Assembly: GCA_963663165.1 (NCBI GenBank) | Contig: OY760175.1 | Span: 384,001 to 448,000 of the forward strand | Length of the DNA: 64,000 bases | Source: an uncultured Desulfospira sp. | GTDB taxonomy: Bacteria > Desulfobacterota > Desulfobacteria > Desulfobacterales > Desulfobacteraceae | Reading direction: 5' to 3' | Shown here: piece by piece, positions 4,189 to 19,017 of the stretch | Layout: each line of letters begins with the position of its first letter | How positions within the stretch are numbered: the stretch's first letter is position 1 | Made by a program: the position numbers and the translations under genes | The notes under the pieces: model-generated | Told to the model about the DNA's origin: nothing | Database searches by the model: none | Seen by the model: only the letters and a program-made list of their open reading frames with translations

Positions 4189-7100
4189 GTTTCAATCCTT
4201 GTTGTGATGGATCAGTTTCCGGAGGCCAACGCCGGCTACGTGGCCGTTAGCATTCATTTGGTTTCAATCCTTGTTGTGATGGATCAGTTTCCGGAGGAGA
4301 TATATCTTTCTGGTCAAACACCTATCAAATAAGTTTCAATCCTTGTTGTGATGGATCAGTTTCCGGAGGCATAGAACTTGTTTGCAAGGGAATGGATCCC
4401 GATACCTGTTTCAATCCTTGTTGTGATGGATCAGTTTCCGGAGGCAGGCACATAATAAAGGATGCCTGGTACAGATAAGGTTTCAATCCTTGTTGTGATG
4501 GATCAGTTTCCGGAGGAAGGCTGGATTATGGACTGGCAAGCATTAGATAAGGTTTCAATCCTTGTTGTGATGGATCAGTTTCCGGAGGATGAAATGGAAG
4601 AGATGAAAATCAAATATGTTGGCAAGTTTCAATCCTTGTTGTGATGGATCAGTTTCCGGAGGCCGGTATTCTCTACGGTTGCACAATGCACTTGTTCAGT
4701 TTCAATCCTTGTTGTGATGGATCAGTTTCCGGAGGTGGAGAATTGTCCTTCTCCACGGTTGTTTCCTCAAGGTTTCAATCCTTGTTGTGATGGATCAGTT
4801 TCCGGAGGAGACGATGACCTTGACGCCCAATTGGGAGATGGAACGTTTCAATCCTTGTTGTGATGGATCAGTTTCCGGAGGTGGAGAGAGTCCAGACGAT
4901 GGAAGGCTTTCCATATGTTTCAATCCTTGTTGTGATGGATCAGTTTCCGGAGGAGCGCCAATGTCAGGGATGGCGACAAGCTGGTCAAGTTTCAATCCTT
5001 GTTGTGATGGATCAGTTTCCGGAGGTATGTGCGGCGAGAGGACTGGATCATGAGTTTTGGTTTCAATCCTTGTTGTGATGGATCAGTTTCCGGAGGTGAC
5101 CGCAGGATTTATCCATGACTGCTCCACCTGGGGTTTCAATCCTTGTTGTGATGGATCAGTTTCCGGAGGCCGGAGAAAGTGGAGGTCAACCTCCTGCCGG
5201 CCGGGTTTCAATCCTTGTTGTGATGGATCAGTTTCCGGAGGCGCATCACCGCTCAACTCATAGGTAATGGAATCCAAGTTTCAATCCTTGTTGTGATGGA
5301 TCAGTTTCCGGAGGTTGGCGGTTTTATCCTTCAGGCACCAACAATAGTGATGTTTCAATCCTTGTTGTGATGGATCAGTTTCCGGAGGGCAGATCCGGGA
5401 GTGAATCTAATCGGTACCGCAACGGTTTCAATCCTTGTTGTGATGGATCAGTTTCCGGAGGACTGGCAAGCCCCGCCGAAAACTGGTTCCCGAAATGTTT
5501 CAATCCTTGTTGTGATGGATCAGTTTCCGGAGGTGTTGTGTCTGCTGGTTTAACTGCGGTTGGTAGAAGGTTTCAATCCTTGTTGTGATGGATCAGTTTC
5601 CGGAGGCGAGATTACGGGTTATGTGGCTGATACTCGTCCTGGAGTTTCAATCCTTGTTGTGATGGATCAGTTTCCGGAGGCGATTGTATAAATAAGGAAT
5701 AAGTGTTTTCGATTTTGTTTCAATCCTTGTTGTGATGGATCAGTTTCCGGAGGTATCTTTGAGACCGGGCTTAAGCATGCGTTTTCCGGTTTCAATCCTT
5801 GTTGTGATGGATCAGTTTCCGGAGGGATCATAAGGCGGCCCGGATAATCCAGGCATGCAAAGGTTTCAATCCTTGTTGTGATGGATCAGTTTCCGGAGGC
5901 TAATCGTGATCCGCCCAGATATGACCGGCTTTTGTGTTTCAATCCTTGTTGTGATGGATCAGTTTCCGGAGGGGTGGATGGTGGCCCCGGTGCTGTACCC
6001 CTCACAAAGTTTCAATCCTTGTTGTGATGGATCAGTTTCCGGAGGTCTTTTTCTTAGGGGAAAAATGGCTGGAGTGGGCCAAGTTTCAATCCTTGTTGTG
6101 ATGGATCAGTTTCCGGAGGGAGCCGGGCGTCCATCTTATGGAATTGGTTGAACGGGTTTCAATCCTTGTTGTGATGGATCAGTTTCCGGAGGTGATGTCC
6201 GGGTCGCCATGGAATCCGGCAGGATGGGGTTTCAATCCTTGTTGTGATGGATCAGTTTCCGGAGGCTGAAGAGAAGGGGATTCCCAAACCCCTTAGACGG
6301 GGGTTTCAATCCTTGTTGTGATGGATCAGTTTCCGGAGGGCCCCGTTTGCCAGCCAGGCCCTGGCCGATCAGGGGGGTTTCAATCCTTGTTGTGATGGAT
6401 CAGTTTCCGGAGGCAGCAGCCAGCTGGACGGCAACCAGGTTCTGCTGGAGTTTCAATCCTTGTTGTGATGGATCAGTTTCCGGAGGACCTGCCTTCAATC
6501 AACATGCGGCGGATGAAAGAAAGTTTCAATCCTTGTTGTGATGGATCAGTTTCCGGAGGAAAGATATCCAGATCATCCCTGTTGGAGACTTCTCAAGTTT
6601 CAATCCTTGTTGTGATGGATCAGTTTCCGGAGGTCTATACGGCATTGCCGTATGATTTTATCATGTTCAAGTTTCAATCCTTGTTGTGATGGATCAGTTT
6701 CCGGAGGTGAATCTGGCATTATGAACCAACGAACTTTTATGGCGTTTCAATCCTTGTTGTGATGGATCAGTTTCCGGAGGTGGGGCCTTGCATACGGAAA
6801 CCTCCCGCACAAAAGGGTTTCAATCCTTGTTGTGATGGATCAGTTTCCGGAGGCATCCTATGAATTCAGGTATTGTTCAATGGCCCGGAGTTTCAATCCT
6901 TGTTGTGATGGATCAGTTTCCGGAGGGCGCCGGGCATGAGCATGACGGCGATGCATTGATCGAGTTTCAATCCTTGTTGTGATGGATCAGTTTCCGGAGG
7001 CGGTTCAACAGTTTCAGCTCCCGCCAGACCCTCAGAGTTTCAATCCTTGTTGTGATGGATCAGTTTCCGGAGGGCCGTCGTAGCACTCCGTTGTCAGCCC

Positions 7101-8680
7101 GGCGTCCAGGTTTCAATCCTTGTTGTGATGGATCAGTTTCCGGAGGCGGGTATGCCAGGTATGCCCCTCTTTGTACTGATCTTGTTTCAATCCTTGTTGT
7201 GATGGATCAGTTTCCGGAGGCCGCTGCATGAGCCGGTCATAGTCCTGCCGGGGAAGTTTCAATCCTTGTTGTGATGGATCAGTTTCCGGAGGAGGATGAG
7301 TAAGAATGTTCCAAGAGTATTGGGAAAAGTTTCAATCCTTGTTGTGATGGATCAGTTTCCGGAGGCTCAACCACCTTTGCCCGCCCGTTATACGGTTTGG
7401 GTTTCAATCCTTGTTGTGATGGATCAGTTTCCGGAGGCCATTTCGCCACGGGCAGGGGAAATAGCTTTAATGGAGTTTCAATCCTTGTTGTGATGGATCA
7501 GTTTCCGGAGGGGGAAATTCCCTGCTCAAGCTGCACCTGTGCAATATGTTTCAATCCTTGTTGTGATGGATCAGTTTCCGGAGGTAGTGTGACAGCCGAT
7601 ATTCATCAATTGATTCTTTATGTTTCAATCCTTGTTGTGATGGATCAGTTTCCGGAGGTTGATCCGCTGGCGGCGTCAAGCTGGTATGTGTACTTGTTTC
7701 AATCCTTGTTGTGATGGATCAGTTTCCGGAGGCAGCAATGTCGGTGACACCCTAAAAACACCCAAAAAGTTTCAATTCTTGTTGTGATGGATCAGTTTCC
7801 GGAGGACAGGGTAAAATCCTTTCGTATGCCCGTTGAATCGAGTTTCAATCCTTGTTGTGATGGATCAGTTTCCGGAGGCCAAGGCGCTTCTGGTGGTTCA
7901 TCAAGAGGTCATAGGTTTCAATCCTTGTTGTGATGGATCAGTTTCCGGAGGACCTGAAGAATACTTGTTTTTACACCTTAACTTGAAGTTTCAATCCTTG
8001 TTGTGATGGATCAGTTTCCGGAGGTTGTCAACCGCCTTGTTTATCTCAGGGGTTTGGGCCAGTTTCAATCCTTGTTGTGATGGATCAGTTTCCGGAGGCA
8101 ACACAATAGTGAGGAGTAGGTTTCTATGCGGATGTTTCAATCCTTGTTGTGATGGATCAGTTTCCGGAGGATTATAACGGAAAAAGAGGTCGAGGCATTG
8201 GAAATTGTTTCAATCCTTGTTGTGATGGATCAGTTTCCGGAGGACATGATACACCAAGCTCAACGCCGTCTACCCTGAGTTTCAATCCTTGTTGTGATGG
8301 ATCAGTTTCCGGAGGTGCCTGGCAAGTGATTGAATCTTTGCCGGTAGAAATAGTTTCAATCCTTGTTGTGATGGATCAGTTTCCGGAGGGCCACAGAAAG
8401 GAGAAATACCATGAAAACAGCATTCAGTTTCAATCCTTGTTGTGATGGATCAGTTTCCGGAGGAATATCCGTCAGGTCTTGATGATAGATGTCCAGCGGT
8501 TTCAATCCTTGTTGTGATGGATCAGTTTCCGGAGGAGGGGGTCTTTACCATTAAGTGAGATTGTTAATTACGGTTTCAATCCTTGTTGTGATGGATCAGT
8601 TTCCGGAGGTCCAATGGATACTATATTCAAACCATGACCATGAGTTTCAATCCTTGTTGTGATGGATCAGTTTCCGGAGG
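4189..8680 (-). CRISPR. CRISPR array: 62 repeats of 37 bp (CCTCCGGAAACTGATCCATCACAACAAGGATTGAAAC on the minus strand) and 61 spacers of about 34-38 bp
   Basis: Manual count, about 73-bp period; the ATTGAAAC 3' handle and the AT-rich leader on the right give minus orientation; one variant repeat at 7769. Confidence 0.98.
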
Positions 8681-8836: not shown

Positions 8837-9439
8837 TTATCTTTCGCAAATATTTTTATAGCAACAATCAATACATCTTGTTTTATATGCAGTCCCTTTT
8901 GGGTATCGACAATTGGTAATTGTTTGATGCATATTAAAAATTATCTGGTCAAATTGTTTGAAATCTTTAATTGACAGGTTGACTTCGATTAATTTGTTTT
9001 TGCTTCTTGTGAATACCAAAAATCCTTGATTAACATTAGTGTCATAATTTTCGATAATTAACTTTGCGTAGAATACAAGTTGAAATCGGTGGGTCATGAA
9101 TAATCGGTTTTTGAATTTCGCGTATTTGAAATCTAATGGGGCCGCTGTGTGGTCTGAAAAAAATAATATTTCATCAACAACTCCACGAAGGCCCGATTTT
9201 GTAGACAGATAAACATTATTGCGTTTTTCAACCACATTAAGCTTTTTTCTTAGATATTGCCGGTTTGTTTTAATCGCAGATTCATGTATAGATCTTCCTT
9301 TCATTACTTTGAATCTTTTTTCCTGTCGTTCTGGTATATCGAGAACATACTCAAAATATGTAAATCGGGGACAATACAAGTATTCTAAGAGGTGGGTTGC
9401 GGTAAAATTGCAAGTGGCATTCATGTCTTTAACTTTCAA
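8837..9439 (-). CDS. cas4: CRISPR-associated exonuclease Cas4
   Basis: YCPR, G-x-x-x-H, GVVD, PLDFK, QLVFYA and C-terminal CIDCCYKNIC Fe-S cysteines; exact start uncertain. Confidence 0.93.
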   Translation of the reverse strand: MKVKDMNATCNFTATHLLEYLYCPRFTYFEYVLDIPERQEKRFKVMKGRSIHESAIKTNRQYLRKKLNVVEKRNNVYLSTKSGLRGVVDEILFFSDHTAAPLDFKYAKFKNRLFMTHRFQLVFYAKLIIENYDTNVNQGFLVFTRSKNKLIEVNLSIKDFKQFDQIIFNMHQTITNCRYPKGTAYKTRCIDCCYKNICER

Positions 9440-9447
9440 GATGTTCT

Positions 9448-11754
9448 TTAGAAAAATATGTCGCTGTCAAAATTATCTATGTCTTTGATCTCAAATCCTC
9501 TGCCTGGAGTGTAATATTTATCATTTAAAAAATTATAACATCCGATCTGATCAGAAATAACAGATGGATCGATTTTTTTTGAGGTCCAAATAGAAACCGT
9601 AACTTGGGCGATTCTTGATTTTAATTTTCTTAACTGCCGTTCTCGACTCCATCTGTCATCTATTTCAATGGCGAGCCTCAATTCTTCATGAAGCAGACCA
9701 GAACCGGCTGGTGGTTCATCTTGAGATGCGACAATAAAATCTATTTTTTCATGATCTCCGCGAAGCAGTTTTTTTACATTGAGATCTTCTCGCCAAAAAG
9801 CCCAGTCATCAGCAAATCGTTTTCCAACATTCATGCCTTCTTTAATAAGACGAAAATACTCAGTAATTAATTGAAACACATTCTCTTCCGGTATTGTCTC
9901 TGAAGCTTGGTTTAATATAACGCCTGTATATTCTAAAAGAGTTTTATCGTAAACAAGCCTGGAATATTTTGTATTGTTTTGGCCACATAAATTTACGATT
10001 TCAACATCAGCTCTTTTTTTTGTTCCATTACGATTGCACCGGCCAGCACATTGAACCAGGGAATCGATAGGGGCAAAATCTCTTATGACCAAGTCCATAT
10101 CGATATCTACTCCAGCTTCAATGCATTGGGTAGCAATAACGAGGCATGGCCCCTCATTTTTAATCTTATCAATATTTTCCAGTCTTTCCTTGGGTGTTAC
10201 GTCTGCGCTAAGAAAATAGGCTGCGCTTTGAATGTGGCTTCCCAGGGAATCCATTACAAATCTGGCGGATTTTCTTGTATTTAAGACAATCAGAATTTTT
10301 TTTTGATGCCAGTTTTCATCGTTTATTCGATGAATGCAGTTCTCAATGAAGGATTCAATTGATATCTTCTCAAGCCTTAAGATCATTTGATATCTGGTTT
10401 GCTGTTCAAATATCTCATCGGGGTTGTTAACCAGTTCCTTGGTTTTTATAAAATTAGGTTGAGTTGCCGACATTATCAAGAACTTAGAATTGAAATTCGT
10501 GGTAAGTGTGGAGACTGCAAGATTCAATGGTTCCCACAATTGAGGTGGTAAAGCCTGAATTTCATCCATGATAATCAAAGCATCAGTTAAATTGTGGAAA
10601 CGCAGCAGATGTTTTTTTTCGGAAGAAAGAAGTGCATACAAAAATTGATCAAAAGTCGTGATGATGAAATCATAATTCCAGGTTTCTGAAAAAAAATCTA
10701 CCGCCTTATTATAATCGTTGTCGATGTCCTGGTCCTCTCCTTCCTTGTACTGACGTCCGGCGATGGAGTGGGCCTCCAGAATTATGTTTTCGGCATTGCA
10801 GCCTGAGAATAACTGTCTGTACTCTTTTACGGTCTGGTCAATGATTGATAAAAACGGCAGCACGATAATTACTTTTCTGGACACAGGTGAACCCATTCTG
10901 TGTGTCAATGCCCATTGAGCTGCGACCAGGGTTTTTCCAAGTCCTGTGGGCAGTGTTACGCTTTCAATATTGGGATCAATGGAACTGTTCTGGATAATCT
11001 GCTGCCTGACAATGGTTCTTTTTTGATTCAGCGGCTCCTTTCTCTGCTTTTCTGTTGTTTTACTGATAATGTAGTTATCTATTAAACACGGGGGTAATTC
11101 AGTTTCTTTAGATCGGTCTGTATTTGAATCTCTGAATTCAGGGCTTAAAGCCAGAAAAGTCCGGTCCGATTCCAAAAGAACGGAAAATAGCAATTGGGCT
11201 TTAAGCCTTGTTAGCGAAGCAATTTCCAGTGAAAGGGTTTCAATATAATTCTCCGGTAAAATATCTTCCAACTGGAGATCGGAATCTTTTTGTTTAAAAT
11301 CAAGCTGTAAATCTAATTCTCGATTCACCTGATCAACGGGATAGAGTCCTATCTTATAGTCGTCTTCGTAAAAGTACAGTGTATTGTAAAATAATTCCTT
11401 GATGGTTGGAAATCTGCCATGATGACGCCATATGGCAGCAGTGACAATCAATGCAAACTCATTTGGGATTTCACTTTTCAACGCATAGGCAAGCCACAGC
11501 AAGAGCGAAACCGGGGTATGGGCCTTTAGAATTGGATCCCCCCTATATTTCTCAGGCGCTTCGATATAGGCTTGGAAGGCCGGGGTGGCTTTCCCAAGAT
11601 CATGGAAGTCAATTGCAAGATTTAGCGGGTAATGAAGCACTTCACAAACTTGATCAGAGTGCTTTTTTTCAATCAGTCTGCCTGCCTGGTGTACTTCATA
11701 AACGTGATCTTTCAACGATTTATACGGCTTGCAATGGGACTGAATCATAGCCAT
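9448..11754 (-). CDS. cas3: Cas3 HD nuclease/helicase
   Basis: FHDLGK and HHG HD-domain motifs; LPTGLGKT, DEIQ, SAT, EAGVDID and QCAGRCNR helicase motifs. Confidence 0.95.
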   Translation of the reverse strand: MAMIQSHCKPYKSLKDHVYEVHQAGRLIEKKHSDQVCEVLHYPLNLAIDFHDLGKATPAFQAYIEAPEKYRGDPILKAHTPVSLLLWLAYALKSEIPNEFALIVTAAIWRHHGRFPTIKELFYNTLYFYEDDYKIGLYPVDQVNRELDLQLDFKQKDSDLQLEDILPENYIETLSLEIASLTRLKAQLLFSVLLESDRTFLALSPEFRDSNTDRSKETELPPCLIDNYIISKTTEKQRKEPLNQKRTIVRQQIIQNSSIDPNIESVTLPTGLGKTLVAAQWALTHRMGSPVSRKVIIVLPFLSIIDQTVKEYRQLFSGCNAENIILEAHSIAGRQYKEGEDQDIDNDYNKAVDFFSETWNYDFIITTFDQFLYALLSSEKKHLLRFHNLTDALIIMDEIQALPPQLWEPLNLAVSTLTTNFNSKFLIMSATQPNFIKTKELVNNPDEIFEQQTRYQMILRLEKISIESFIENCIHRINDENWHQKKILIVLNTRKSARFVMDSLGSHIQSAAYFLSADVTPKERLENIDKIKNEGPCLVIATQCIEAGVDIDMDLVIRDFAPIDSLVQCAGRCNRNGTKKRADVEIVNLCGQNNTKYSRLVYDKTLLEYTGVILNQASETIPEENVFQLITEYFRLIKEGMNVGKRFADDWAFWREDLNVKKLLRGDHEKIDFIVASQDEPPAGSGLLHEELRLAIEIDDRWSRERQLRKLKSRIAQVTVSIWTSKKIDPSVISDQIGCYNFLNDKYYTPGRGFEIKDIDNFDSDIFF

Positions 11755-12473
11755 TGGAGTATATGCTCCCCTGCTTTTACGGCATGTTCCGTTTCGATTG
11801 AAAGTGTATTGCCACCAACCGGGTATAGATATGTTGCATGGGAAAACTGCCTGTCGCTTGTCAGAGCGCGGGGCATACGAATGGATTTTGCCGCCATGTT
11901 CTTTTCAAGAAGATCCTCTATATTCAAAGATACCTGATCCCGACGGATCAATGTTTTTACGTGGTATTTTCCCATGGGTAATGGTTCTACTGCCGAAGTA
12001 TTCACAAAGGTCAGGTCTGCCGCCATTTCAGACAGCCCAAGGCAGGGTGAAAAATGCCACTGTCTGGTTTTAATTCGGCGACATAAATCAGAATAAAAGG
12101 GCTCGGGGATTTGAGCGAAAACGGTATAGTCAGGGCGGATGAGCCATTCCTGAATGATCTGGGTATTTCTTTGGTGTTTTGAAGATCCCAGCGCATTTTT
12201 TGTTACCTGAAACGGTAGCATGCCCGGCGGATCTTTCCTCAAGTTGGCAGTATGCCAATGGGTCAGGGCAGAACCTCCTGAAACGGCAATGTTTGCGTCT
12301 TCAAGCTTTACCTGGCAAGTGTCTTTTTCAAAGCCCATCACGGCACCGAGCAGGCCGAGCAATGCTGTTCGCGGTGGAAATGGGTAGCTTGGGGCCGACG
12401 CATTCGCTTCGGCCCTTAAAAAATGTCCGTATTTCCCCGTGTATTTAAAAATGACACATTGATTGTTTGTCAT
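11745..12473 (-). CDS. cas5: Cas5 (type I-B)
   Basis: GKYGHF...SYPFPPRTALLGLLGAVMG and PCLGLSEM. Confidence 0.93.
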   Translation of the reverse strand: MTNNQCVIFKYTGKYGHFLRAEANASAPSYPFPPRTALLGLLGAVMGFEKDTCQVKLEDANIAVSGGSALTHWHTANLRKDPPGMLPFQVTKNALGSSKHQRNTQIIQEWLIRPDYTVFAQIPEPFYSDLCRRIKTRQWHFSPCLGLSEMAADLTFVNTSAVEPLPMGKYHVKTLIRRDQVSLNIEDLLEKNMAAKSIRMPRALTSDRQFSHATYLYPVGGNTLSIETEHAVKAGEHILQWL

Positions 12474-12489
12474 TGTTTGTCCTCAAAAA

Positions 12490-13425
12490 TTAATCAATTT
12501 TAAGAGCAGTCCAGTCTGCAGGAAGCGCAGATGAAAATTCGATATCCGGTGATGCTTCATATGATATTGCCTCAATTTTTTCAGAAAATTGATTAAGTCT
12601 TTCCAAAAGCTGGTTTAAATCCACCTGATAATCCTTTGGAGAGCTCCATGCCTTTTCTTCTTTCCCATTTTTAGGAACTAAAGCAATATAATCTGACAGG
12701 TTCCCGAATTGAAATTCTGTGTCCTTTTTGTAAGTCAAGGATATCAAAAGCCTCGGGACCTGACCGAATTTGGATCGCGTATTACCGGCACCCCTTACTC
12801 CCTTCCACATGGTTTCAAGCACCGTATTGTAGTCAGTTTCGGTCATCCTGGACAACCGGGCTGAATGCTCGTTTGCAACACCATTAAATCCGATAAGCGC
12901 ATACCTCAACGCATAATAGGCGGTAAAGGTGCCCTGGGTTTTGCTTTCGCTGGAACCAAAGGTCGTTGTGCCATGGATATCTACAGGCTCCGCATCATGC
13001 ATCACCTCTCCATGATTAAACTGCAATGCCCCGGTTAAGGTTTTGGGTACCGGCTTGGCCTCCCAGGTCCCCTCCTGCTTAAAAGCTAATGAGCTGCCAA
13101 ACAATCTGGCATCAATAAAGGAATCCAGAAGGATCGTTACAAGTTCCTCACCGGTGGCTTCTGGTTTCCCTATCTTCTGAAGATGATGGGCTACTCGTCC
13201 GGTCAAGTTGGTGGTCTTGTCTTCAATGGTATCAACAAGGATGGCATGTCCCTGGGTTTTGAACTGATCTCTGATAAACCGTTTCAATCTGACATCCGTG
13301 ACATAGTAGGTGCCGTCCGGCAATACCCTGGGTCGATTTTCATCGGGATCGCCATTTGGGTTCCCCATTTTAATATCATATGCAAAAAACAGTTCCCGCC
13401 TTGAGGTCAATAATTCATTTGTCAT
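12490..13425 (-). CDS. cas7: Cas7 (Csh2-like, type I-B)
   Basis: GNPNGDPDENRPR, VTDVRLKRFIRD, IDARLFG, TRSKFGQVPR. Confidence 0.93.
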   Translation of the reverse strand: MTNELLTSRRELFFAYDIKMGNPNGDPDENRPRVLPDGTYYVTDVRLKRFIRDQFKTQGHAILVDTIEDKTTNLTGRVAHHLQKIGKPEATGEELVTILLDSFIDARLFGSSLAFKQEGTWEAKPVPKTLTGALQFNHGEVMHDAEPVDIHGTTTFGSSESKTQGTFTAYYALRYALIGFNGVANEHSARLSRMTETDYNTVLETMWKGVRGAGNTRSKFGQVPRLLISLTYKKDTEFQFGNLSDYIALVPKNGKEEKAWSSPKDYQVDLNQLLERLNQFSEKIEAISYEASPDIEFSSALPADWTALKID

Positions 13426-13442
13426 CGGTATATCTCCTTAAG

Positions 13443-13868
13443 TTATTTTTTTGTTTCTTTTTTAGTTGAAAACAAATCTGAGGCGATTGATTGGCCTAAA
13501 AGAATAAAGTAGCAGCATGGGGTTTGATCTAACGAAATGGTGTCGCCCAAAAGGGTTCCAAGAGCACCGGCTTCCCTGATGACCTCCCTGAGTTGAGAAC
13601 TGCCTTCAGCATCATATGCCAATAGCTTCTCGCGAATTTTAACGTAAAAGCCCGGCAAATCCTTACCCGTTAGAGTGAGTCTTTTCAGCCATGTCAGGGC
13701 ATTGGCATTGACATTGACCCCTTTGCCCCCCTGAAGGGCAAGCACACGTCCGAATAAGATTCCAAGAATAAAAGCAAACGCTTTTTCGTTACTTGTGATA
13801 CCGGATTCTTCAGAAAAGTACGGTTCAAGATCTTTCATTTTCGGGACGTAGGTTCTTAGGTTTTCCAT
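13443..13868 (-). CDS. Putative internally translated Cas11 small subunit (141 aa, in frame within cas8b)
   Basis: GGAGGT at 13884-13879, 10 nt before an in-frame ATG (MENLRTYVPK...). Confidence 0.55.
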   Translation of the reverse strand: MENLRTYVPKMKDLEPYFSEESGITSNEKAFAFILGILFGRVLALQGGKGVNVNANALTWLKRLTLTGKDLPGFYVKIREKLLAYDAEGSSQLREVIREAGALGTLLGDTISLDQTPCCYFILLGQSIASDLFSTKKETKK

Positions 13869-15440
13869 TTTAATCATTACCTCCATGTGGTGTAAATAAC
13901 TAAGGGCCCAGGCCAGATGTCTGATCCATCCGGCAAAGGTCCACCAGTATGTATCATTTTTTTGTGAAAACCCTTCCTGCAGACAATCGAATTCCGGTTT
14001 TTCTTTTTCAAGGATGGATAGCAGGTACCACCGGGCAGTGGTCAGTATTTCTTCTTCAAACCGCTGTTTAGGAATGGGCTTATTTTTGTATATGGCCTCA
14101 ACCATCAAGCGTTTAAGCTCCGTGAGCTTTCTGCTGGCGTTTACGCTGCCCGCTTTTTTGCCACCCGGTCTTCGCAGCAAGGGGAAAATAAATGAACAAT
14201 TTAGGTCGAACTTAAATTCTTCTATAACGGCGTGAATTGGGAAAAGCGGAGAACTTTTTTCATTAAACTCCCTGTTCAGCTTGTCAATCTGCTTTAGCCT
14301 TGAGGGAAGAATATCGGTAATTTTTCCCGATAGATTTCCCATACTTTGGCCTTTTAGGCTGTCGTTGGACCAAATCACATCAACCGAGCATACAGCCGTA
14401 TGCCTTTTAAAAAGTCTTATCAGTTTTAATTGTTCAATTTTCAGCGCCTCTTGGGGGGCACTGGCAATTTCTTTGATATAGACCTGGTAATCTGCTATGA
14501 ACTTCGAAATTAGATCTGAATCACTGTACAACTCTGGAATCATAAGTGATTCCTGACCGGCAAGGTAGGTGATGAAATTATGATTGACATGAAATTTATA
14601 AACATAAAGCAAATCTGCGCAATGTTCACACAGGGCATATGAGAGATGGGCATTCTGGTTGGTTATCCCCGGAAATGCACCCTCACGGTCAATATTAAAA
14701 ATATTCATCCCGGCTTTGGACAGACCCGCAGCAAACCCTTTGACATTTTTCGACCCGCAGCAGGGGCATTGGTCCAGGTCAACAGGTTTTGCTTTGGCCA
14801 AGGAATATTTTTTTTCACCGTCCAGCATGGTGGCCAGATAATTCCTATATCCTGAAACCTGTCCAGGGAGACAGCCTTGTGTTTTAAACGCTAAAAAGAC
14901 TGGCTTTGATTCGGGAATAATCTCAACTGCGGTATGAAAAGCATTATGCTTGCACTCGTGAAGTTCTCCAGCATAATAAAGCCTTGCGTGGCTGAAGACC
15001 CGGTGACATTCTTTAAAAAAACCTGCCCACTCCTTTTCTGATGTTGAAAATTTTTCAAAATTTTTAAGGGTGGAGGTGATGATCTGCAGGGTGGGGCCCG
15101 GACCTTTCTGCTTGGAATAGGAGCGCTTGATGACAGGGCCGATTTGCGGAGACCGAGGACCGCTTGGTTTGTTAAAAGGCAGAAAAGAGGCTACATTTTC
15201 ACCTAATGATTCAATGGAAGCACTCTCAAGAATTGTACCGTTTTCATCTTCCGGAGATTGACTCAGGGTATAATATTTTTCTATCTTTCCGGATGGTTCA
15301 ACCAGAAAGGGGAAAAATCGCCCCGGATCTCTATTCTTTTCTTGGACAAACCATTGTCTCAGATCCTCCGGAAGGGGATTGATACCCTCAAGGTTTTTCC
15401 AAAGATGACAGAGTGCCAGGTTTTGCATTATATCAAGCAT
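13443..15440 (-). CDS. cas8b: Cas8b large subunit (TM1802/Csh1-like)
   Basis: 665 aa between cas6 and cas7; CPCC and LCEHC Zn ligands; helical C-terminus with AFILGILFG and YFILLG. Confidence 0.8.
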   Translation of the reverse strand: MLDIMQNLALCHLWKNLEGINPLPEDLRQWFVQEKNRDPGRFFPFLVEPSGKIEKYYTLSQSPEDENGTILESASIESLGENVASFLPFNKPSGPRSPQIGPVIKRSYSKQKGPGPTLQIITSTLKNFEKFSTSEKEWAGFFKECHRVFSHARLYYAGELHECKHNAFHTAVEIIPESKPVFLAFKTQGCLPGQVSGYRNYLATMLDGEKKYSLAKAKPVDLDQCPCCGSKNVKGFAAGLSKAGMNIFNIDREGAFPGITNQNAHLSYALCEHCADLLYVYKFHVNHNFITYLAGQESLMIPELYSDSDLISKFIADYQVYIKEIASAPQEALKIEQLKLIRLFKRHTAVCSVDVIWSNDSLKGQSMGNLSGKITDILPSRLKQIDKLNREFNEKSSPLFPIHAVIEEFKFDLNCSFIFPLLRRPGGKKAGSVNASRKLTELKRLMVEAIYKNKPIPKQRFEEEILTTARWYLLSILEKEKPEFDCLQEGFSQKNDTYWWTFAGWIRHLAWALSYLHHMEVMIKMENLRTYVPKMKDLEPYFSEESGITSNEKAFAFILGILFGRVLALQGGKGVNVNANALTWLKRLTLTGKDLPGFYVKIREKLLAYDAEGSSQLREVIREAGALGTLLGDTISLDQTPCCYFILLGQSIASDLFSTKKETKK

Positions 15441-15454
15441 GGACCCACTCCTTT

Positions 15455-16126
15455 TTATAGTATTTTCTGGATGGTGCCGAATCCCCGTGATACTGATTTC
15501 CCAAGTCCTATATAGTCCGGCAATAGAAAATTTGTTTTAAAAATGCCTTTAAACCCGATCATCGATTTACCCTTTAAAGTAGTTTTCGATGGCTTAATGC
15601 TAAGGTCTGTTTCAATTCTCTGGTCTCGTTCTAAATGGCAGCCAAGATATTTGGCACAGGACAGGATATTTCCGGTAAGAATTTTTTTAAGAAGTGATTT
15701 TTTGTCCCTGCTGTCAGCCATTTCGGTAAACAGGTTATAATTGTGCTGATTTAATGCCAGCCATAACGATTTAAATTCATACATAAATGTTTCTGGCGAG
15801 AATCCGAAATCCGTATTTTCGATTTTCAGATTTTTTTCATTAATTGGAATAACCTTGCCTTCAATGTCGACTTTGTCCAGTGTCATGAAAATTTGCATGA
15901 ATATCTGAATCGCTTTTTCTGTCAAGGCGATTATACAGGGCGTCTGATCAACAAGTTTAAACTGGATCAAAGGATATCGATAAATGTGTTGGCCGGTTTT
16001 TGTATTATGGTTGTGAACCAGATCATACTCGGAAAATACGTTGCCGACATAACCCCTGAATTTATGGATCTGGGAGGGGGTTAGGCGGATGTCATTAAAA
16101 TAAAGAGATGCTTTTTTCACAATCAT
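15455..16126 (-). CDS. cas6: Cas6 (Cas6b-like) crRNA endoribonuclease
   Basis: FRGY, LVHNH, YRYPLIQFK and the C-terminal G-rich loop IGLGKSVSRGFG. Confidence 0.92.
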   Translation of the reverse strand: MIVKKASLYFNDIRLTPSQIHKFRGYVGNVFSEYDLVHNHNTKTGQHIYRYPLIQFKLVDQTPCIIALTEKAIQIFMQIFMTLDKVDIEGKVIPINEKNLKIENTDFGFSPETFMYEFKSLWLALNQHNYNLFTEMADSRDKKSLLKKILTGNILSCAKYLGCHLERDQRIETDLSIKPSKTTLKGKSMIGFKGIFKTNFLLPDYIGLGKSVSRGFGTIQKIL

Positions 16127-16141
16127 TATTCCAGTATTAGC

Positions 16142-16342
16142 TTAAAATTTGTGATGATTGTTTTTGCTACAGCCAATCTGTAATCCAAATGAAAAATTTA
16201 AAGAAAACAAATAAGTCTTTCGTGACGGAATTGTACCCATCGTCGGTTTGGCAAGTTTGATTTTTGTGAAAACTGAATCCGAATAGTTGCTGACATTTTT
16301 TTTAAGGGTCATGAAATGGTTTGGGATCAAATTTTTGTTCAT
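16142..16342 (-). CDS. Small hypothetical ORF (66 aa) upstream of cas6; candidate CRISPR-repressed toxin or leader peptide
   Basis: Strong GGAGG SD (16352-16348) before the ATG; stop 15 bp before cas6; no recognisable family. Confidence 0.45.
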   Translation of the reverse strand: MNKNLIPNHFMTLKKNVSNYSDSVFTKIKLAKPTMGTIPSRKTYLFSLNFSFGLQIGCSKNNHHKF

Positions 16343-16364
16343 TCTTACCTCCAAATTTGGCCTA

Positions 16365-16389
16365 CATAGTTAATCCTATATCACATTAA
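16365..16389 (-). promoter_or_regulatory. Predicted target of the crRNA-like RNA (TTA PAM + ATGTGATATAGGATT)
   Basis: 13/15 identity to the spacer starting at 16505, mismatched only at positions 6 and 12; lies between TTGACA (16435-16430) and the SD of the small ORF. Confidence 0.75.
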
Positions 16390-16443
16390 AAATTTTGTGT
16401 GGCTTTAATCTTTTCATCTTCTGTCATTTTGTCAAGAAAAAAC

Positions 16444-16472
16444 TTGAAAATAAAAATACCAATACCCATAAT
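16444..16472 (+). promoter_or_regulatory. Sigma70 promoter TTGAAA-17 bp-CATAAT for the crRNA-like RNA
   Basis: Exact 17-bp spacing; predicted +1 near 16479, inside degenerate repeat 1; divergent from the cas6 operon. Confidence 0.65.
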
Positions 16473-16477
16473 TAGCT

Positions 16478-16558
16478 ATCCATGTCAGAAAAAAGGATTG
16501 AAAAATGTGCTATAGAATTTAGCTATGACTGCTAATCCATTATAATAAGGATCGAATT
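16478..16558 (+). ncRNA. crRNA-like regulatory RNA (CreR/CreA type): degenerate repeat, short spacer, degenerate repeat
   Basis: Repeat 1 is ATCCAT...AAGGATTGAAAA (11 of the last 12 nt of the array repeat); repeat 2 (16532-16558) is 20/27 identical; both keep the ATCC/GGAT stem. Confidence 0.75.
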
Positions 16559-16563
16559 TGCAG

Positions 16564-16863
16564 TTAAAAAAACTTGGATAAAATTTCATCATTCACCAAT
16601 TTCCTGTCAAAGCCTTGGCCCAACACCTGGATGCGTCTAAAGTCCTCCTGGCAGAATGGGAAGAGATAAACACTGTCCGTGTCTTCGTCCATGAGATCCA
16701 GACAGTATTCGGCCAGCTCGTCGAAACGGCTGGTGTCCAGGTGGCCCAAAAAGATGCTTTTCTGGACGCGGGTCAAGCCGTATTTTTTGCAGACCTTTGC
16801 AATTTTACTCCGGACCTTATTCTCGGCAATGTCATACATGATCCAGGCGAGGATGGAACTCAT
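16564..16863 (-). CDS. cas2: Cas2
   Basis: MYDI...RSKIAKVCKKYGLTRVQKSIFLG and DSVYLFP. Confidence 0.95.
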   Translation of the reverse strand: MSSILAWIMYDIAENKVRSKIAKVCKKYGLTRVQKSIFLGHLDTSRFDELAEYCLDLMDEDTDSVYLFPFCQEDFRRIQVLGQGFDRKLVNDEILSKFF

Positions 16864-17876
16864 TAAAACTCCTTTATTGTAAGCCAGTCAGGGCGGACCA
16901 TATCGGAATCTTCTAAAAGGATATTGGCCAGGCGGTGTGCCTCGTGACTGATTATATGTTTTCGTTTGACGTTTTTCCTGCGATAGCGAACTTTTTCCTC
17001 CAAATGTTTGTTCAATGCATCTATGACCTGTGGTTTGCCTTTTGTATTCAGTGTGCAGGAATGTTCCTGGACATCGAAGTATTCACCTTTTGCCTTTTTG
17101 CCGGTGAAAAAATACACCGCCACCTGATCAGCAAAGATTCGGAAGGGTTCAATAAGGTCAAAGACCAGGGACTTTTTATTGTAGTTATCGGAATGCATAA
17201 AGCCCACAAAGGGATCAAGTCCGGCAATGATGCAGGCTTTCTCAACCCGCGAATAAAGGACCCCATAACAATAGTTCAGGGCAGCGTTAAAGGGATTCAG
17301 TGCCGGATGCCTTGACCGGCCTTTGAACCGGTATTTTTCCGGCATGACTTTAGAAATGCAGGAAAAATATGCCCGGCCGGCTGCTCCTTCAAGGCCCATG
17401 ATAAGAGATCGGGATTTATCAAGATCGCTAAGATCACAATTCAATGCTTCAAGGGAACCCTCAATGGTATGAATGGGGGCGTCAAACATATCCTTTTTAT
17501 CCCGTCGGGCATATTTGAGTTTTTTCAGAAAGGCAATCTGGTTTTCCAGTTTGTTTTGTATCATACCAATGACCAGCCTTACCCCGGTCTCGTCTTCAGC
17601 TGCTTGAAGCTGCTTTCTTCGGATCAGTGCGGTAGAACCCATTTTTGAAAACCATACCCTGCCCAAAGGGAAACCATATTTGTCCAGAAATACCAGGTCA
17701 ATATTGTGCTCCAGGGCCAGGGAGATAGCAGCGGTAGAAACCATTGCCTGGTTGGAAACAATAATTGATTCCAGCTTCAATGGTGATAATTCCAGTTTGT
17801 TTTCCCTGTTCTGAAACAAAAAAATTTCATTTTTCTGTTTAACCAGGGTGCCGGGAGAGTTAACTATTAATTGGAT
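16863..17876 (-). CDS. cas1: Cas1; the likely start is a non-canonical ATC at 17876
   Basis: MGLEGAAGRAYF, NAALNYCYGVLY, GFMH and SLVFDLIEPFR; the frame extends 19 codons past the ORF-track start to ATC-CAA-TTA (IQLIVNSPG) behind an AAGGAG SD. Confidence 0.92.
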   Translation of the reverse strand: MQLIVNSPGTLVKQKNEIFLFQNRENKLELSPLKLESIIVSNQAMVSTAAISLALEHNIDLVFLDKYGFPLGRVWFSKMGSTALIRRKQLQAAEDETGVRLVIGMIQNKLENQIAFLKKLKYARRDKKDMFDAPIHTIEGSLEALNCDLSDLDKSRSLIMGLEGAAGRAYFSCISKVMPEKYRFKGRSRHPALNPFNAALNYCYGVLYSRVEKACIIAGLDPFVGFMHSDNYNKKSLVFDLIEPFRIFADQVAVYFFTGKKAKGEYFDVQEHSCTLNTKGKPQVIDALNKHLEEKVRYRRKNVKRKHIISHEAHRLANILLEDSDMVRPDWLTIKEF

Positions 17877-17889
17877 ATCAAATCTCCTT

Positions 17890-19017
17890 TCAAATTTTTA
17901 CAAGCTTGAACTCCGTTGCTGCGGTTTTGATTTCTTCTATTTCCGGGGTGGCCGGGGCCAGCTGCTCGGCGGCCGTGAGCAGGTCATAAAACCTGCCGTT
18001 GGCGTTGATGATCCGGCGGCTGTTGTCGGGCTCGCCAAAGCCGGTCTGGTGGTAGTGGGTCTGGATCTGGGTTTTGAAGGTTTCGCTTAATGGACCTGTG
18101 ATGAGGTTAAGTTCCAGGAGGCGGTAGAGAAAGGCTTCGGCTGAGATGCCGAACCGGTGTTTGATGCGAAGCAGAAGGTCAAAGGTCCAGGTGTCAGGGG
18201 TGATCCCCAGCTGCCCGATCGTGGCCCGGACAGCGGTGGCCGGTGCCAGAAACGTGGCGGCAAAGCATCGGGCGGCCCGGATGGGGGTGACGGGCCGGGG
18301 GCCGGGATCGGATTCGGGGAAAAGGGTGTCTTTTCTGATTCTGATCTGGTTGAAGATCAGGATTTTGCCAAGCTCTGTGGCAAGGGAGAAAAGCTGTTTT
18401 TCCGGGTTCTTCTTTGCGTCGATGAAAAAAAAGGCGTTCTGGTGGATGGGTTCGTAAAAGGAGACGGCGTCAAAGTCTTGGGCCGCCTTCATGAAAGGGA
18501 GGACGAGGATGCGCAATCCAAAATTTTCAAACAGTTCCAGGTAGTCAAATACCACGGCGTCCCCGGTGCCCATGGCGTCCCTGACCCTTTGGGACAGATG
18601 TTCCATGCCCGGATAGTCCGGTTCAAAGGGGAGGGTCAGGGGAACAAGGGCGTGTTTTTGAACACCCAGGATGTCTTCCAGTGCATGGAAGGCGGTCATG
18701 AGTTGGTGGCACACCGACAGCAGTGGCTTGGGCGGGATGACCGGGTCTTGATCAATGGCCGTAAACAGGGCGTCGGTGTCGGCGGCTGAGGCCCGGGCCT
18801 GGGTCAGTTCCGGGGAAAACAGGGCGTCGGCCGGGACATCTAAGGCCTGGGTGAGGCTGTAGATCACCGCTGCCGAGGGCAGGTTGATGCCCCGTTCAAT
18901 GCGGCCGAGGGGGCCTTCCCGGATGCCGATTTTGGCGGCAAGCCGGGCCAGGGTCCAGTTTCGGGACCGGCGGAAAAAACGGATGTTTTTTCCGATAAAT
19001 TTTAGGTCGTCGCTCAT
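17890..19017 (-). CDS. XRE HTH fused to an ImmA/IrrE (peptidase M78)-like domain with a degenerate Zn motif
   Basis: N-terminal HTH (WTLARLAAKIGI...LGRIERG); QLFSLATELGK where RFTLAHELGH is expected; ARCFAATFLAP and KHRFGISAEAFLYRL. Confidence 0.8.
   Translation of the reverse strand: MSDDLKFIGKNIRFFRRSRNWTLARLAAKIGIREGPLGRIERGINLPSAAVIYSLTQALDVPADALFSPELTQARASAADTDALFTAIDQDPVIPPKPLLSVCHQLMTAFHALEDILGVQKHALVPLTLPFEPDYPGMEHLSQRVRDAMGTGDAVVFDYLELFENFGLRILVLPFMKAAQDFDAVSFYEPIHQNAFFFIDAKKNPEKQLFSLATELGKILIFNQIRIRKDTLFPESDPGPRPVTPIRAARCFAATFLAPATAVRATIGQLGITPDTWTFDLLLRIKHRFGISAEAFLYRLLELNLITGPLSETFKTQIQTHYHQTGFGEPDNSRRIINANGRFYDLLTAAEQLAPATPEIEEIKTAATEFKLVKI

Follow-up and report, generated by a model that had tools for sequence, protein, structure and literature searches.

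Results

A repeat-flanked element in the cas2-cas6 gap of a type I-B locus

We analyzed a window of 64,000 nucleotides (nt) on contig OY760175.1 (positions 384,001 to 448,000) from an uncultured Desulfospira sp. with a genome of 6.74 Mb and 50% GC. The window contains a complete type I-B CRISPR locus, and the subject of this study is a small element on the plus strand of its cas2-cas6 gap (16444-16558). An earlier note on this DNA had described it as a regulator resembling a CRISPR RNA (crRNA) and aimed at the region upstream of the cas6-cas8b-cas7-cas5-cas3 operon. According to Pfam, all cas genes lie on the minus strand, opposite to the element, as that note had stated. They form a cas1-cas2 block (16564-17819; cas1 at 16863-17819, cas2 at 16564-16863) and a cas6-cas8b-cas7-cas5-cas3-cas4 block (8837-16126), which begins with cas6b (15455-16126) and continues with a cas8b of the TM1802 family (13443-15440), cas7 (12490-13425), cas5 (11745-12473), cas3 (9448-11754) and cas4 (8837-9439). 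The CRISPR array, also on the minus strand (4189-8680), comprises 62 repeats and 61 spacers of 34-38 nt, with an AT-rich leader on the cas4 side. Its repeat, in the minus-strand reading, is CCTCCGGAAACTGATCCATCACAACAAGGATTGAAAC and ends in ATTGAAAC. The gap between cas2 and cas6 measures 437 nt and has a GC content of about 36%.

Within this gap, 7.8 kb from the array, two repeat-like copies flank a spacer-like sequence on the plus strand. The first copy, psiR1 (ATCCATGTCAGAAAAAAGGATTGAAAA, 16478-16504), begins with ATCCAT at 16478, and its last 8 nt, ATTGAAAA (16497-16504), form a presumed 5' handle identical to ATTGAAAC at 7/8 positions; these placements agree with those given earlier. It is followed by the 30-nt pseudo-spacer psiS (16505-16534) and by psiR2 (16535-16558), which consists of a core, ATCCATTATAATAAGG (16535-16550, the presumed 3' handle hairpin), and of degenerate ATCGAATT after the presumed Cas6 cut. 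Delimited as 16532-16558 (CTAATCCATTATAATAAGGATCGAATT), the second copy is indeed 20/27 identical to the array repeat CCTCCGGAAACTGATCCATCACAACAAGGATTGAAAC in the orientation ending in ATTGAAAC. Counted by eye, the core matches the repeat at 13/16 positions and the next 8 nt at 4/8. A match of 21/24 to the motif ATCCATTATAATAAGGATTGAAAC was also obtained for psiR2, a figure that is partly circular, since the motif was built from the psiR2 core and the canonical handle. Ahead of both copies we found the reported promoter-like site TTGAAA-17-CATAAT at 16444-16472 on the plus strand; it agrees with the consensus at 10/12 positions, is a consensus match only, and would place the start of transcription near 16479. 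A search of Rfam with 15900-17000 gave no match at E <= 1.

The pseudo-spacer matches a site upstream of cas6

We then compared psiS with the surrounding DNA. Over its first 15 positions, ATGTGCTATAGAATT matches ATGTGATATAGGATT on the minus strand (16386-16372) at 13/15 positions, with mismatches at positions 6 and 12, exactly as the earlier note had reported. For all further comparisons, the read positions were defined as the first 18 guide positions minus every sixth (6, 12, and 18), leaving 15 to be scored. By this measure psiS matches the target site ATGTGATATAGGATTAAC (16386-16369, minus strand) at 14/15 positions, with positions 6, 12, and 18 mismatched, so that the guide pairs in three 5-nt segments (positions 1-17) separated by unread sixth bases. 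The target lies 116 nt from psiS. Its 5' flank had been given as TTA, which we take as the candidate protospacer adjacent motif (PAM), and reads TTTA once 16390 is included (16387-16390). The proposed additional pairing of CTATG was likewise recovered: psiS positions 19-23 pair with target bases 16369-16365 once one target base is skipped at position 18, a possible fourth segment that would extend the target to 16365. On the cas-gene strand, the target is preceded by the cas1-cas2 block and followed by the block that starts with cas6; it ends 243 nt before cas6 and 26 nt before the start codon of a small open reading frame (ORF) of 66 amino acids (aa).

A match of this quality could in principle be a chance inverted repeat in AT-rich DNA, with the two repeat-like copies left over from a CRISPR unit that has decayed or recombined. 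The same 800 nt do contain a second 13/15 inverted repeat (16189-16203 / 16403-16417). However, the handle sets the register of the psiS match and, psiS itself apart, the whole genome has no match of at least 14/15 other than that at 16386. Random 18-mers found a match of at least 14/15 within 600 nt at 0.48% of 20,000 positions, and at 0.055% when a TTR flank was also required. The corresponding values for AT-rich 18-mers were 0.34% of 5,000 positions and 0.06%.

One further candidate, a second target upstream of cas6 in the direct repeat D1 (16126-16153), was rejected, as it matches psiS at only 7/15 positions when counted by eye. Elsewhere in the genome, the only other TTTA-flanked 13/15 site for psiS lies at G000:C1:4183662, with segments 1 and 2 perfect. 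It is found just past the stop codon of a 98-aa HTH_3 gene, and a 249-aa ORF without a Pfam family follows about 200 nt downstream. This site may be meaningless, since chance alone would, by a rough estimate, give about 0.2 such sites.

Guides and targets covary among related loci

A Cas6b search of 161 genomes of the family gave matches in 15, the host genome included. Of the foreign loci, we examined 12 (L040-L051), omitting L052 and L053, whose matches were weaker. Two genomes of the same genus had no Cas6b match in this search and, as far as those two genomes show, the type I-B locus does not appear to be common to the genus. At the DNA level, the 437-nt gap found no convincing match in 160 family genomes, only matches of 27-36 nt with E values of 1e-5 to 1e-3, and no match at all in the two same-genus genomes.

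An antisense mini-array was present in the same cas2-cas6 gap in 2/12 relatives, G103 (Cas6b 70% identical) and G100 (59-60%). The G103 element is colinear with that of the window, sharing AAAAAACTTG around the -35 region, GCTATCC at the start of psiR1, and the psiR2 core. The earlier note had proposed looking for covariation of spacer and target in orthologous loci, and this was observed: the pseudo-spacers of the window, G103, and G100 differ from one another, and each matches a cas-strand site in its own gap. The G103 guide, GTTGT.ATG(C)A.ATTGG, matches TTTA-flanked GTTGTAATGTAAATTGG at 14/15 positions, and the G100 guide, ATCTG.GTTTA.ATGTT, matches TTTG-flanked ATCTGCGTTTA-ATGTT at 15/15 with one target base skipped opposite position 12. 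A base missing from the target opposite an unread guide base, at position 18 in the window and at position 12 in G100, hints that such gaps are possible. In another relative (L048, G101:C8), cas2 and cas6 lie about 125 nt apart, and an inverted repeat (CTCTACAACG ... CGTTGTAGGG) borders the gap, which contains no repeat-like sequence; here, a different insert occupies the same junction.

At the order level, Cas6b matches were obtained in 32 of 401 sampled genomes, which added 28 new loci. Scanning with 24-nt repeat-end motifs revealed repeat-like copies outside the array near cas6 in seven of these 28, all in the sense orientation. Four of them, L130 (G479), L139 (G218), L144 (G169), and L156 (G273), are sense mini-arrays upstream of or beside cas6, and their guides match TTTA- or TTTG-flanked sites at 13-15/15 positions. 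These targets lie 30-70 nt upstream of their own psiR1, a position from which the guides would repress their own promoter as well. A metagenome pattern scan (TTGAAA, a gap, and ATCCANNATAATAAGG) returned 73 stretches, nearly all of them chance matches in unrelated DNA or real arrays, and none with a tblastn match to the host Cas1, Cas2, or Cas6. Two metagenome contigs, L058 and L118, resemble mini-arrays and have TTTA-flanked targets of their own, matched at 14/15 and 13/15 positions.

Nine guide-target pairs were thus available: those of the window, G103, G100, G479, G218, G169, and G273, together with L058 and L118. Over segments 1 to 3, 127/135 read positions match when the skip in G100 is counted. 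The sixth positions match in 4/27 cases, and a fourth segment matches at 14/45 positions, which is background. All nine targets are flanked by TTTA or TTTG. In a matrix of 10 guides against 10 loci, the guide matched its own locus at 13/15 or better with a TTR flank in 6/10 cases; the G100 guide reaches this level only if the skip is allowed. Of the 90 cross pairs, none attained 13/15, the maximum being 12, between the homologous G218 and G479. Judged from these alignments, the pairing appears to span about 17 nt and then to stop, while sixth positions drift freely, as expected for a guide of a type I Cascade.

Conservation fits the predicted processing of a guide RNA

To see which parts of the repeat copies are kept, 11 mini-arrays were compared, in ten of which psiR2 could be located. 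In 9/11, psiR1 ends in ATTGAAA[A/C/T], the exceptions being G103 (GTTGAAAC) and G420 (TTTGAAAA). The motif before the presumed psiR1 cut is mostly AAGG, with AGGG, AAGA, and ATGG as variants. All ten located psiR2 copies keep [A/G]TCCA...AAGG, and the 8 nt that follow vary freely (ATCGAATT, CCGCTAAA, ATTGCAGA, ATAAAAAA, and others). Conservation therefore seems limited to those bases that a Cas6-cut RNA would retain. Handle and psiR2 core are 26-36 nt apart (55 nt in G169), compared to 47-51 nt in a normal repeat-spacer unit. Due to this shorter distance, the mature RNA is predicted to be shorter than a crRNA, about 54 nt in the case studied here. As a side observation, AAACAAGGATTGAAAA is tandemly duplicated in the psiR1 of L146 (G204).

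Predicted mechanism

Taken together, these comparisons make it likely that 16444-16558 is a degenerate mini-CRISPR of the CreR/CreA kind, whose guide RNA would hold the bacterium's own I-B Cascade in front of the cas6 operon and so repress it. The mechanism proposed in the earlier note, Cascade guided to a partly matching site with a PAM-like flank upstream of the small ORF and cas6, appears to be the best fit to the comparative data, that is, to the covariation, the sixth positions, the asymmetry between psiR1 and psiR2, and the TTTR flank. Support for the mini-array comes from the comparison of nine loci and not from single repeat copies.

The mini-array would be transcribed from its own plus-strand promoter, TTGAAA-17-CATAAT. 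Cas6b would cut within psiR1, leaving the 8-nt handle ATTGAAAA, and within psiR2 after AAGG, and the resulting RNA of about 54 nt would be loaded into the type I-B Cascade. Pairing over about 17 nt is expected to be too short for a full R-loop and for cutting by Cas3. Since pairing of this length was seen in all nine loci, we infer that Cascade binds without cleavage. It would then remain bound and stop RNA polymerase at the promoter that serves the small ORF and cas6-cas8b-cas7-cas5-cas3-cas4, or a short way past it. Transcripts reading through from cas1-cas2 would also meet this block, and the interference genes would thereby be uncoupled from the adaptation genes. Such an arrangement would act as negative feedback: abundant free Cascade would lead to repression, and titration of Cascade by crRNAs, or its inhibition, would release it.

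Observations that weigh against guide-directed repression

Several observations speak against this model. Each repeat copy on its own is at background, with local alignment scores of 24 and 25 compared to 26 and 23 for unrelated sites in the window. The AUCC/GGAU stems are kept in both copies in the minimum free energy fold, as claimed earlier, although the hairpin is weak and the fold energy is no better than that of shuffled sequences. Most relatives manage without the element, the cas2-cas6 gap being about 45 nt or less in 9/12. Moreover, 3 of the 10 mini-arrays from genomes, L143 (G420), L146 (G204), and L157 (G525), had no clear target in the 3.6 kb around each. The G103 match requires the guide to start 4 nt after GTTGAAAC, in a register chosen among 6-7 offsets. 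In that locus (L041, G103:C42), AAAT stands between GTTGAAAC and the matching part of the guide and looks as if AAAC had been duplicated. A handle of the normal 8 nt would leave the seed mismatched; a slip that recently inactivated the element, an error in the assembly, or cutting at another site may account for this.

The background-level similarity of single copies and the related mini-arrays without a target are also what an inert remnant of a CRISPR unit would show. As for the first of these, the rarity resides in the combination of features, not in one repeat copy; outside the array, the string AAGGATTGAAA[A/C] is found only 7 times in 13.5 Mb (both strands of the genome). Against a remnant, the same architecture recurs in relatives with different guide-target pairs, a 5+1 periodicity, and a constant TTTR flank, and the copies have decayed asymmetrically, as selection on the mature RNA only would have them do. 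Inert remnants were thus already disfavoured, and we consider this explanation very unlikely.

The regulated promoter constitutes a further difficulty for Cascade-mediated repression. A consensus scan detected no minus-strand promoter at 16390-16440. The candidates there, read by eye, are both imperfect: TTGACA (16435-16430)-17-AAGATT would place the target at about +12 to +30, and for TGnTATAGG, in the target itself, the target would overlap the -10 element. The best minus-strand promoter-like site of 16000-16900, TTAACT-17-TATAAT (16567-16539, 10/12), lies further upstream of the target, and Cascade would then act as a roadblock about 150 nt downstream.

This last site falls within the reverse complement of psiR2, just past the cas2 stop codon, and permits an explanation in terms of DNA signals alone. 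The reverse complement of psiR2 would provide the -10 element of the cas6-operon promoter, and a plus-strand transcript, if any, would act only through antisense or convergent transcription. In agreement with such a role, G103 has TTTAAA-16-TATTAT at the corresponding place, and ATAATAAGG, which differs from the repeats of their own arrays, is common to the psiR2 cores of all three antisense mini-arrays. However, promoter-like matches are not clearly above those in shuffled sequences (5 versus 2.5 +/- 1.6), and G100 has no such match. A DNA signal would also leave unexplained the conservation of the handle, the guide-target covariation, the sixth-position pattern, and the TTTR flank. We regard it as a most improbable account of the element, although the promoter could coexist with the guide RNA as one that is roadblocked by Cascade.

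Finally, independent evidence on the PAM from the array spacers is thin. Deriving the PAM from such hits had been suggested earlier. Spacer 29 has protospacers in G152 and G154, each matched at 32/37 positions and flanked by TTTG, and no incompatibility of TTA with the system was seen. In contrast, the only perfect match of an array spacer, the self-match of spacer 48, is flanked by CCG and not by TTR, which is a point against the proposed PAM. Spacer 48 (5170-5204 of the window) is identical at 35/35 positions to G000:C1:4755511-4755545, within the gene for a 713-aa molybdopterin-binding oxidoreductase. The chromosomal site has CCG as its 5' flank and CGG as its 3' flank, and it is matched at 31/35 positions in a same-genus genome. 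This self-targeting is presumably tolerated because the flank is not TTR. Both usable protospacers, those of spacers 29 and 48, came from the comparison of the array with the 161 family genomes, in which 13 of 17 fetched places were matched at 24/37 or weaker, or were repeat matches. Among the matches listed for the 401 order-level genomes, which looked like array-to-array repeat matches, there was no new protospacer. The whole array had no match among 50,697 phage records and one weak match, of 79.6% identity, among 72,556 plasmids.

Orphan ORFs between target and cas6

The 66-aa ORF (16142-16342, minus strand) is separated from the target by 26 nt and from the cas6 gene that follows by 15 nt, with a GGAGG Shine-Dalgarno (SD) sequence 5 nt before its ATG. 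Searched against 5.8 billion clusters, it had no homologue; it matched no Pfam family at E <= 0.01, and the Atlas gave no lead, its best score (0.75) falling short of the useful range. In codon index the frame is on a par with the cas genes and barely exceeds frame +2 (0.59 versus 0.57). In G103, an unrelated ORF of 40 aa with an SD sequence occupies the same slot.

These ORFs raise the possibility of an addiction module of the CreTA/CrePA type. The main client of the guide would then be a toxin encoded by the 66-aa ORF and freed whenever Cascade is lost or inhibited. Such a toxin would make the cas locus addictive and punish anti-CRISPRs, a role compatible with cas autoregulation. The layout of a divergent guide gene, a target, a strong SD sequence (GGAGG at 5 nt), and an ORF is the same as that of creTA and creAP in the accounts of these systems, in which CreT toxins are likewise said to be poorly conserved, and our ORF is an orphan. 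By our own arithmetic, 66 open codons in DNA of 32% GC are improbable by chance (about 0.5% per frame), and the SD-bearing ORF of G103 is found at the same place.

Other features disagree with a toxin. The ORF has neither a Pfam domain nor similarity to the G103 ORF, and its codon index does not separate the frame from +2. Its start is not followed by rare codons in tandem, unlike that of the tRNA-sequestering CreT; the rare codons CCA, CGA, and ACT are scattered, none of them adjacent. Because it abuts cas6, it could also be a leader ORF. Furthermore, G100 has a guide and a target and yet no convincing SD-bearing ORF before cas6, and regulation of the cas genes therefore looks like the common function. 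On balance, we consider an addiction module possible but unlikely, and it seems doubtful that the orphan ORFs between target and cas6 (66 aa here, 40 aa in G103) encode new protein toxins repressed by Cascade. If they did, the element would combine a cas autoregulator with an addiction or anti-anti-CRISPR module in a bacterial type I-B system, inserted exactly at the border between adaptation and interference genes.

Directly upstream of cas1, on the minus strand (17890-19017), we observed a gene for a 375-aa protein with HTH_3 and IrrE-like M78 peptidase domains. The protein may be another regulator of the locus, or its gene may be an unrelated neighbor.

Discussion

The element in the cas2-cas6 gap is most likely an autoregulator of the CreR/CreA type, as judged by its architecture and pairing. 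The kind has been known since publications of 2021-2023, I-B mini-arrays near cas6 included, and the known picture of how such elements work is unchanged by this case. What it adds to the class is a bacterial type I-B example supported by natural variation. Over nine independent pairs, the same rules are shared: pairing in three 5-nt segments that leave the sixth bases unread, an end of pairing after about 17 nt, and a TTTA or TTTG flank. These offer a testable PAM and repression rule for a group of sulfate-reducer CRISPR systems for which there is as yet no genetics. The insertion lies between cas2 and cas6, which form a continuous operon in most relatives, and it would uncouple expression of the interference genes from that of the adaptation genes. 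The new points are thus modest, and consist of the antisense insertion between cas2 and cas6, the orphan ORFs, the nine-locus data on the pairing rule and the PAM, and the two cases of a missing target base. Our literature search found no paper on such elements in this lineage, and the string "Desulf" is absent from the main texts of the two preprints on CreR (10.1101/2023.03.10.532045) and on mini-arrays (PMC10120712).

As described by Liu et al. (10.1101/2023.03.10.532045), CreR is encoded by a psiR1-psiS-psiR2 gene within the cas locus, like the element studied here. There, too, psiR1 keeps the 5' handle and psiR2 the part that gives rise to the 3' handle. The CreR guides match, through the PAM-proximal portion of psiS, a site next to a PAM in or close to a cas promoter, which implies autorepression of the Cascade genes, and the target upstream of cas6 with its candidate PAM may be comparable. 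The cases tested in that work were a haloarchaeal I-B, the Salmonella I-E, and a V-A system, whereas ours comes from a bacterium of the Desulfobacterales and is known from its sequence. Unlike the CreR cases set out there, our mini-array is antisense, in the cas2-cas6 gap of a locus ordered cas1-cas2-cas6, and an orphan ORF stands between the target and cas6.

Shmakov et al. (10.1101/2023.03.03.530964, PMC10120712) report an enrichment of repeat-like sequences around cas6 of I-B loci, 18% of which carry a mini-array. The predicted targets of their mini-arrays lie in the cas6 promoter region next to a PAM and, as in our set, show mismatches at sixth positions. The I-B examples named there are from Clostridium perfringens and Fusobacterium, and ours is from the Desulfobacterales.

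Two addiction modules also resemble the present locus. In CreTA of Haloarcula hispanica (Li et al., 2021, Science, as summarized in citing papers), a guide gene and a small SD-bearing ORF are divergent, with the target between them, inside an I-B cas locus as here; the same target also represses the downstream cas genes there, according to the CreR preprint (10.1101/2023.03.10.532045). CreT is described in these sources as an RNA toxin with a mini-ORF and tandem rare codons, in contrast to the 66-codon ORF of our locus, which has no such motif. As outlined in the preprint on CrePA of Acinetobacter baylyi ADP1, a type I-F system (10.1101/2024.01.05.574328), a CreA-like guide, comparable to the one predicted here, represses the promoter of a protein-coding ORF inside the cas locus. 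CreP is a 103-aa protein of I-F loci with a KilAC domain (10.1101/2024.01.05.574328), whereas the ORF found here has no detectable domain or relative.

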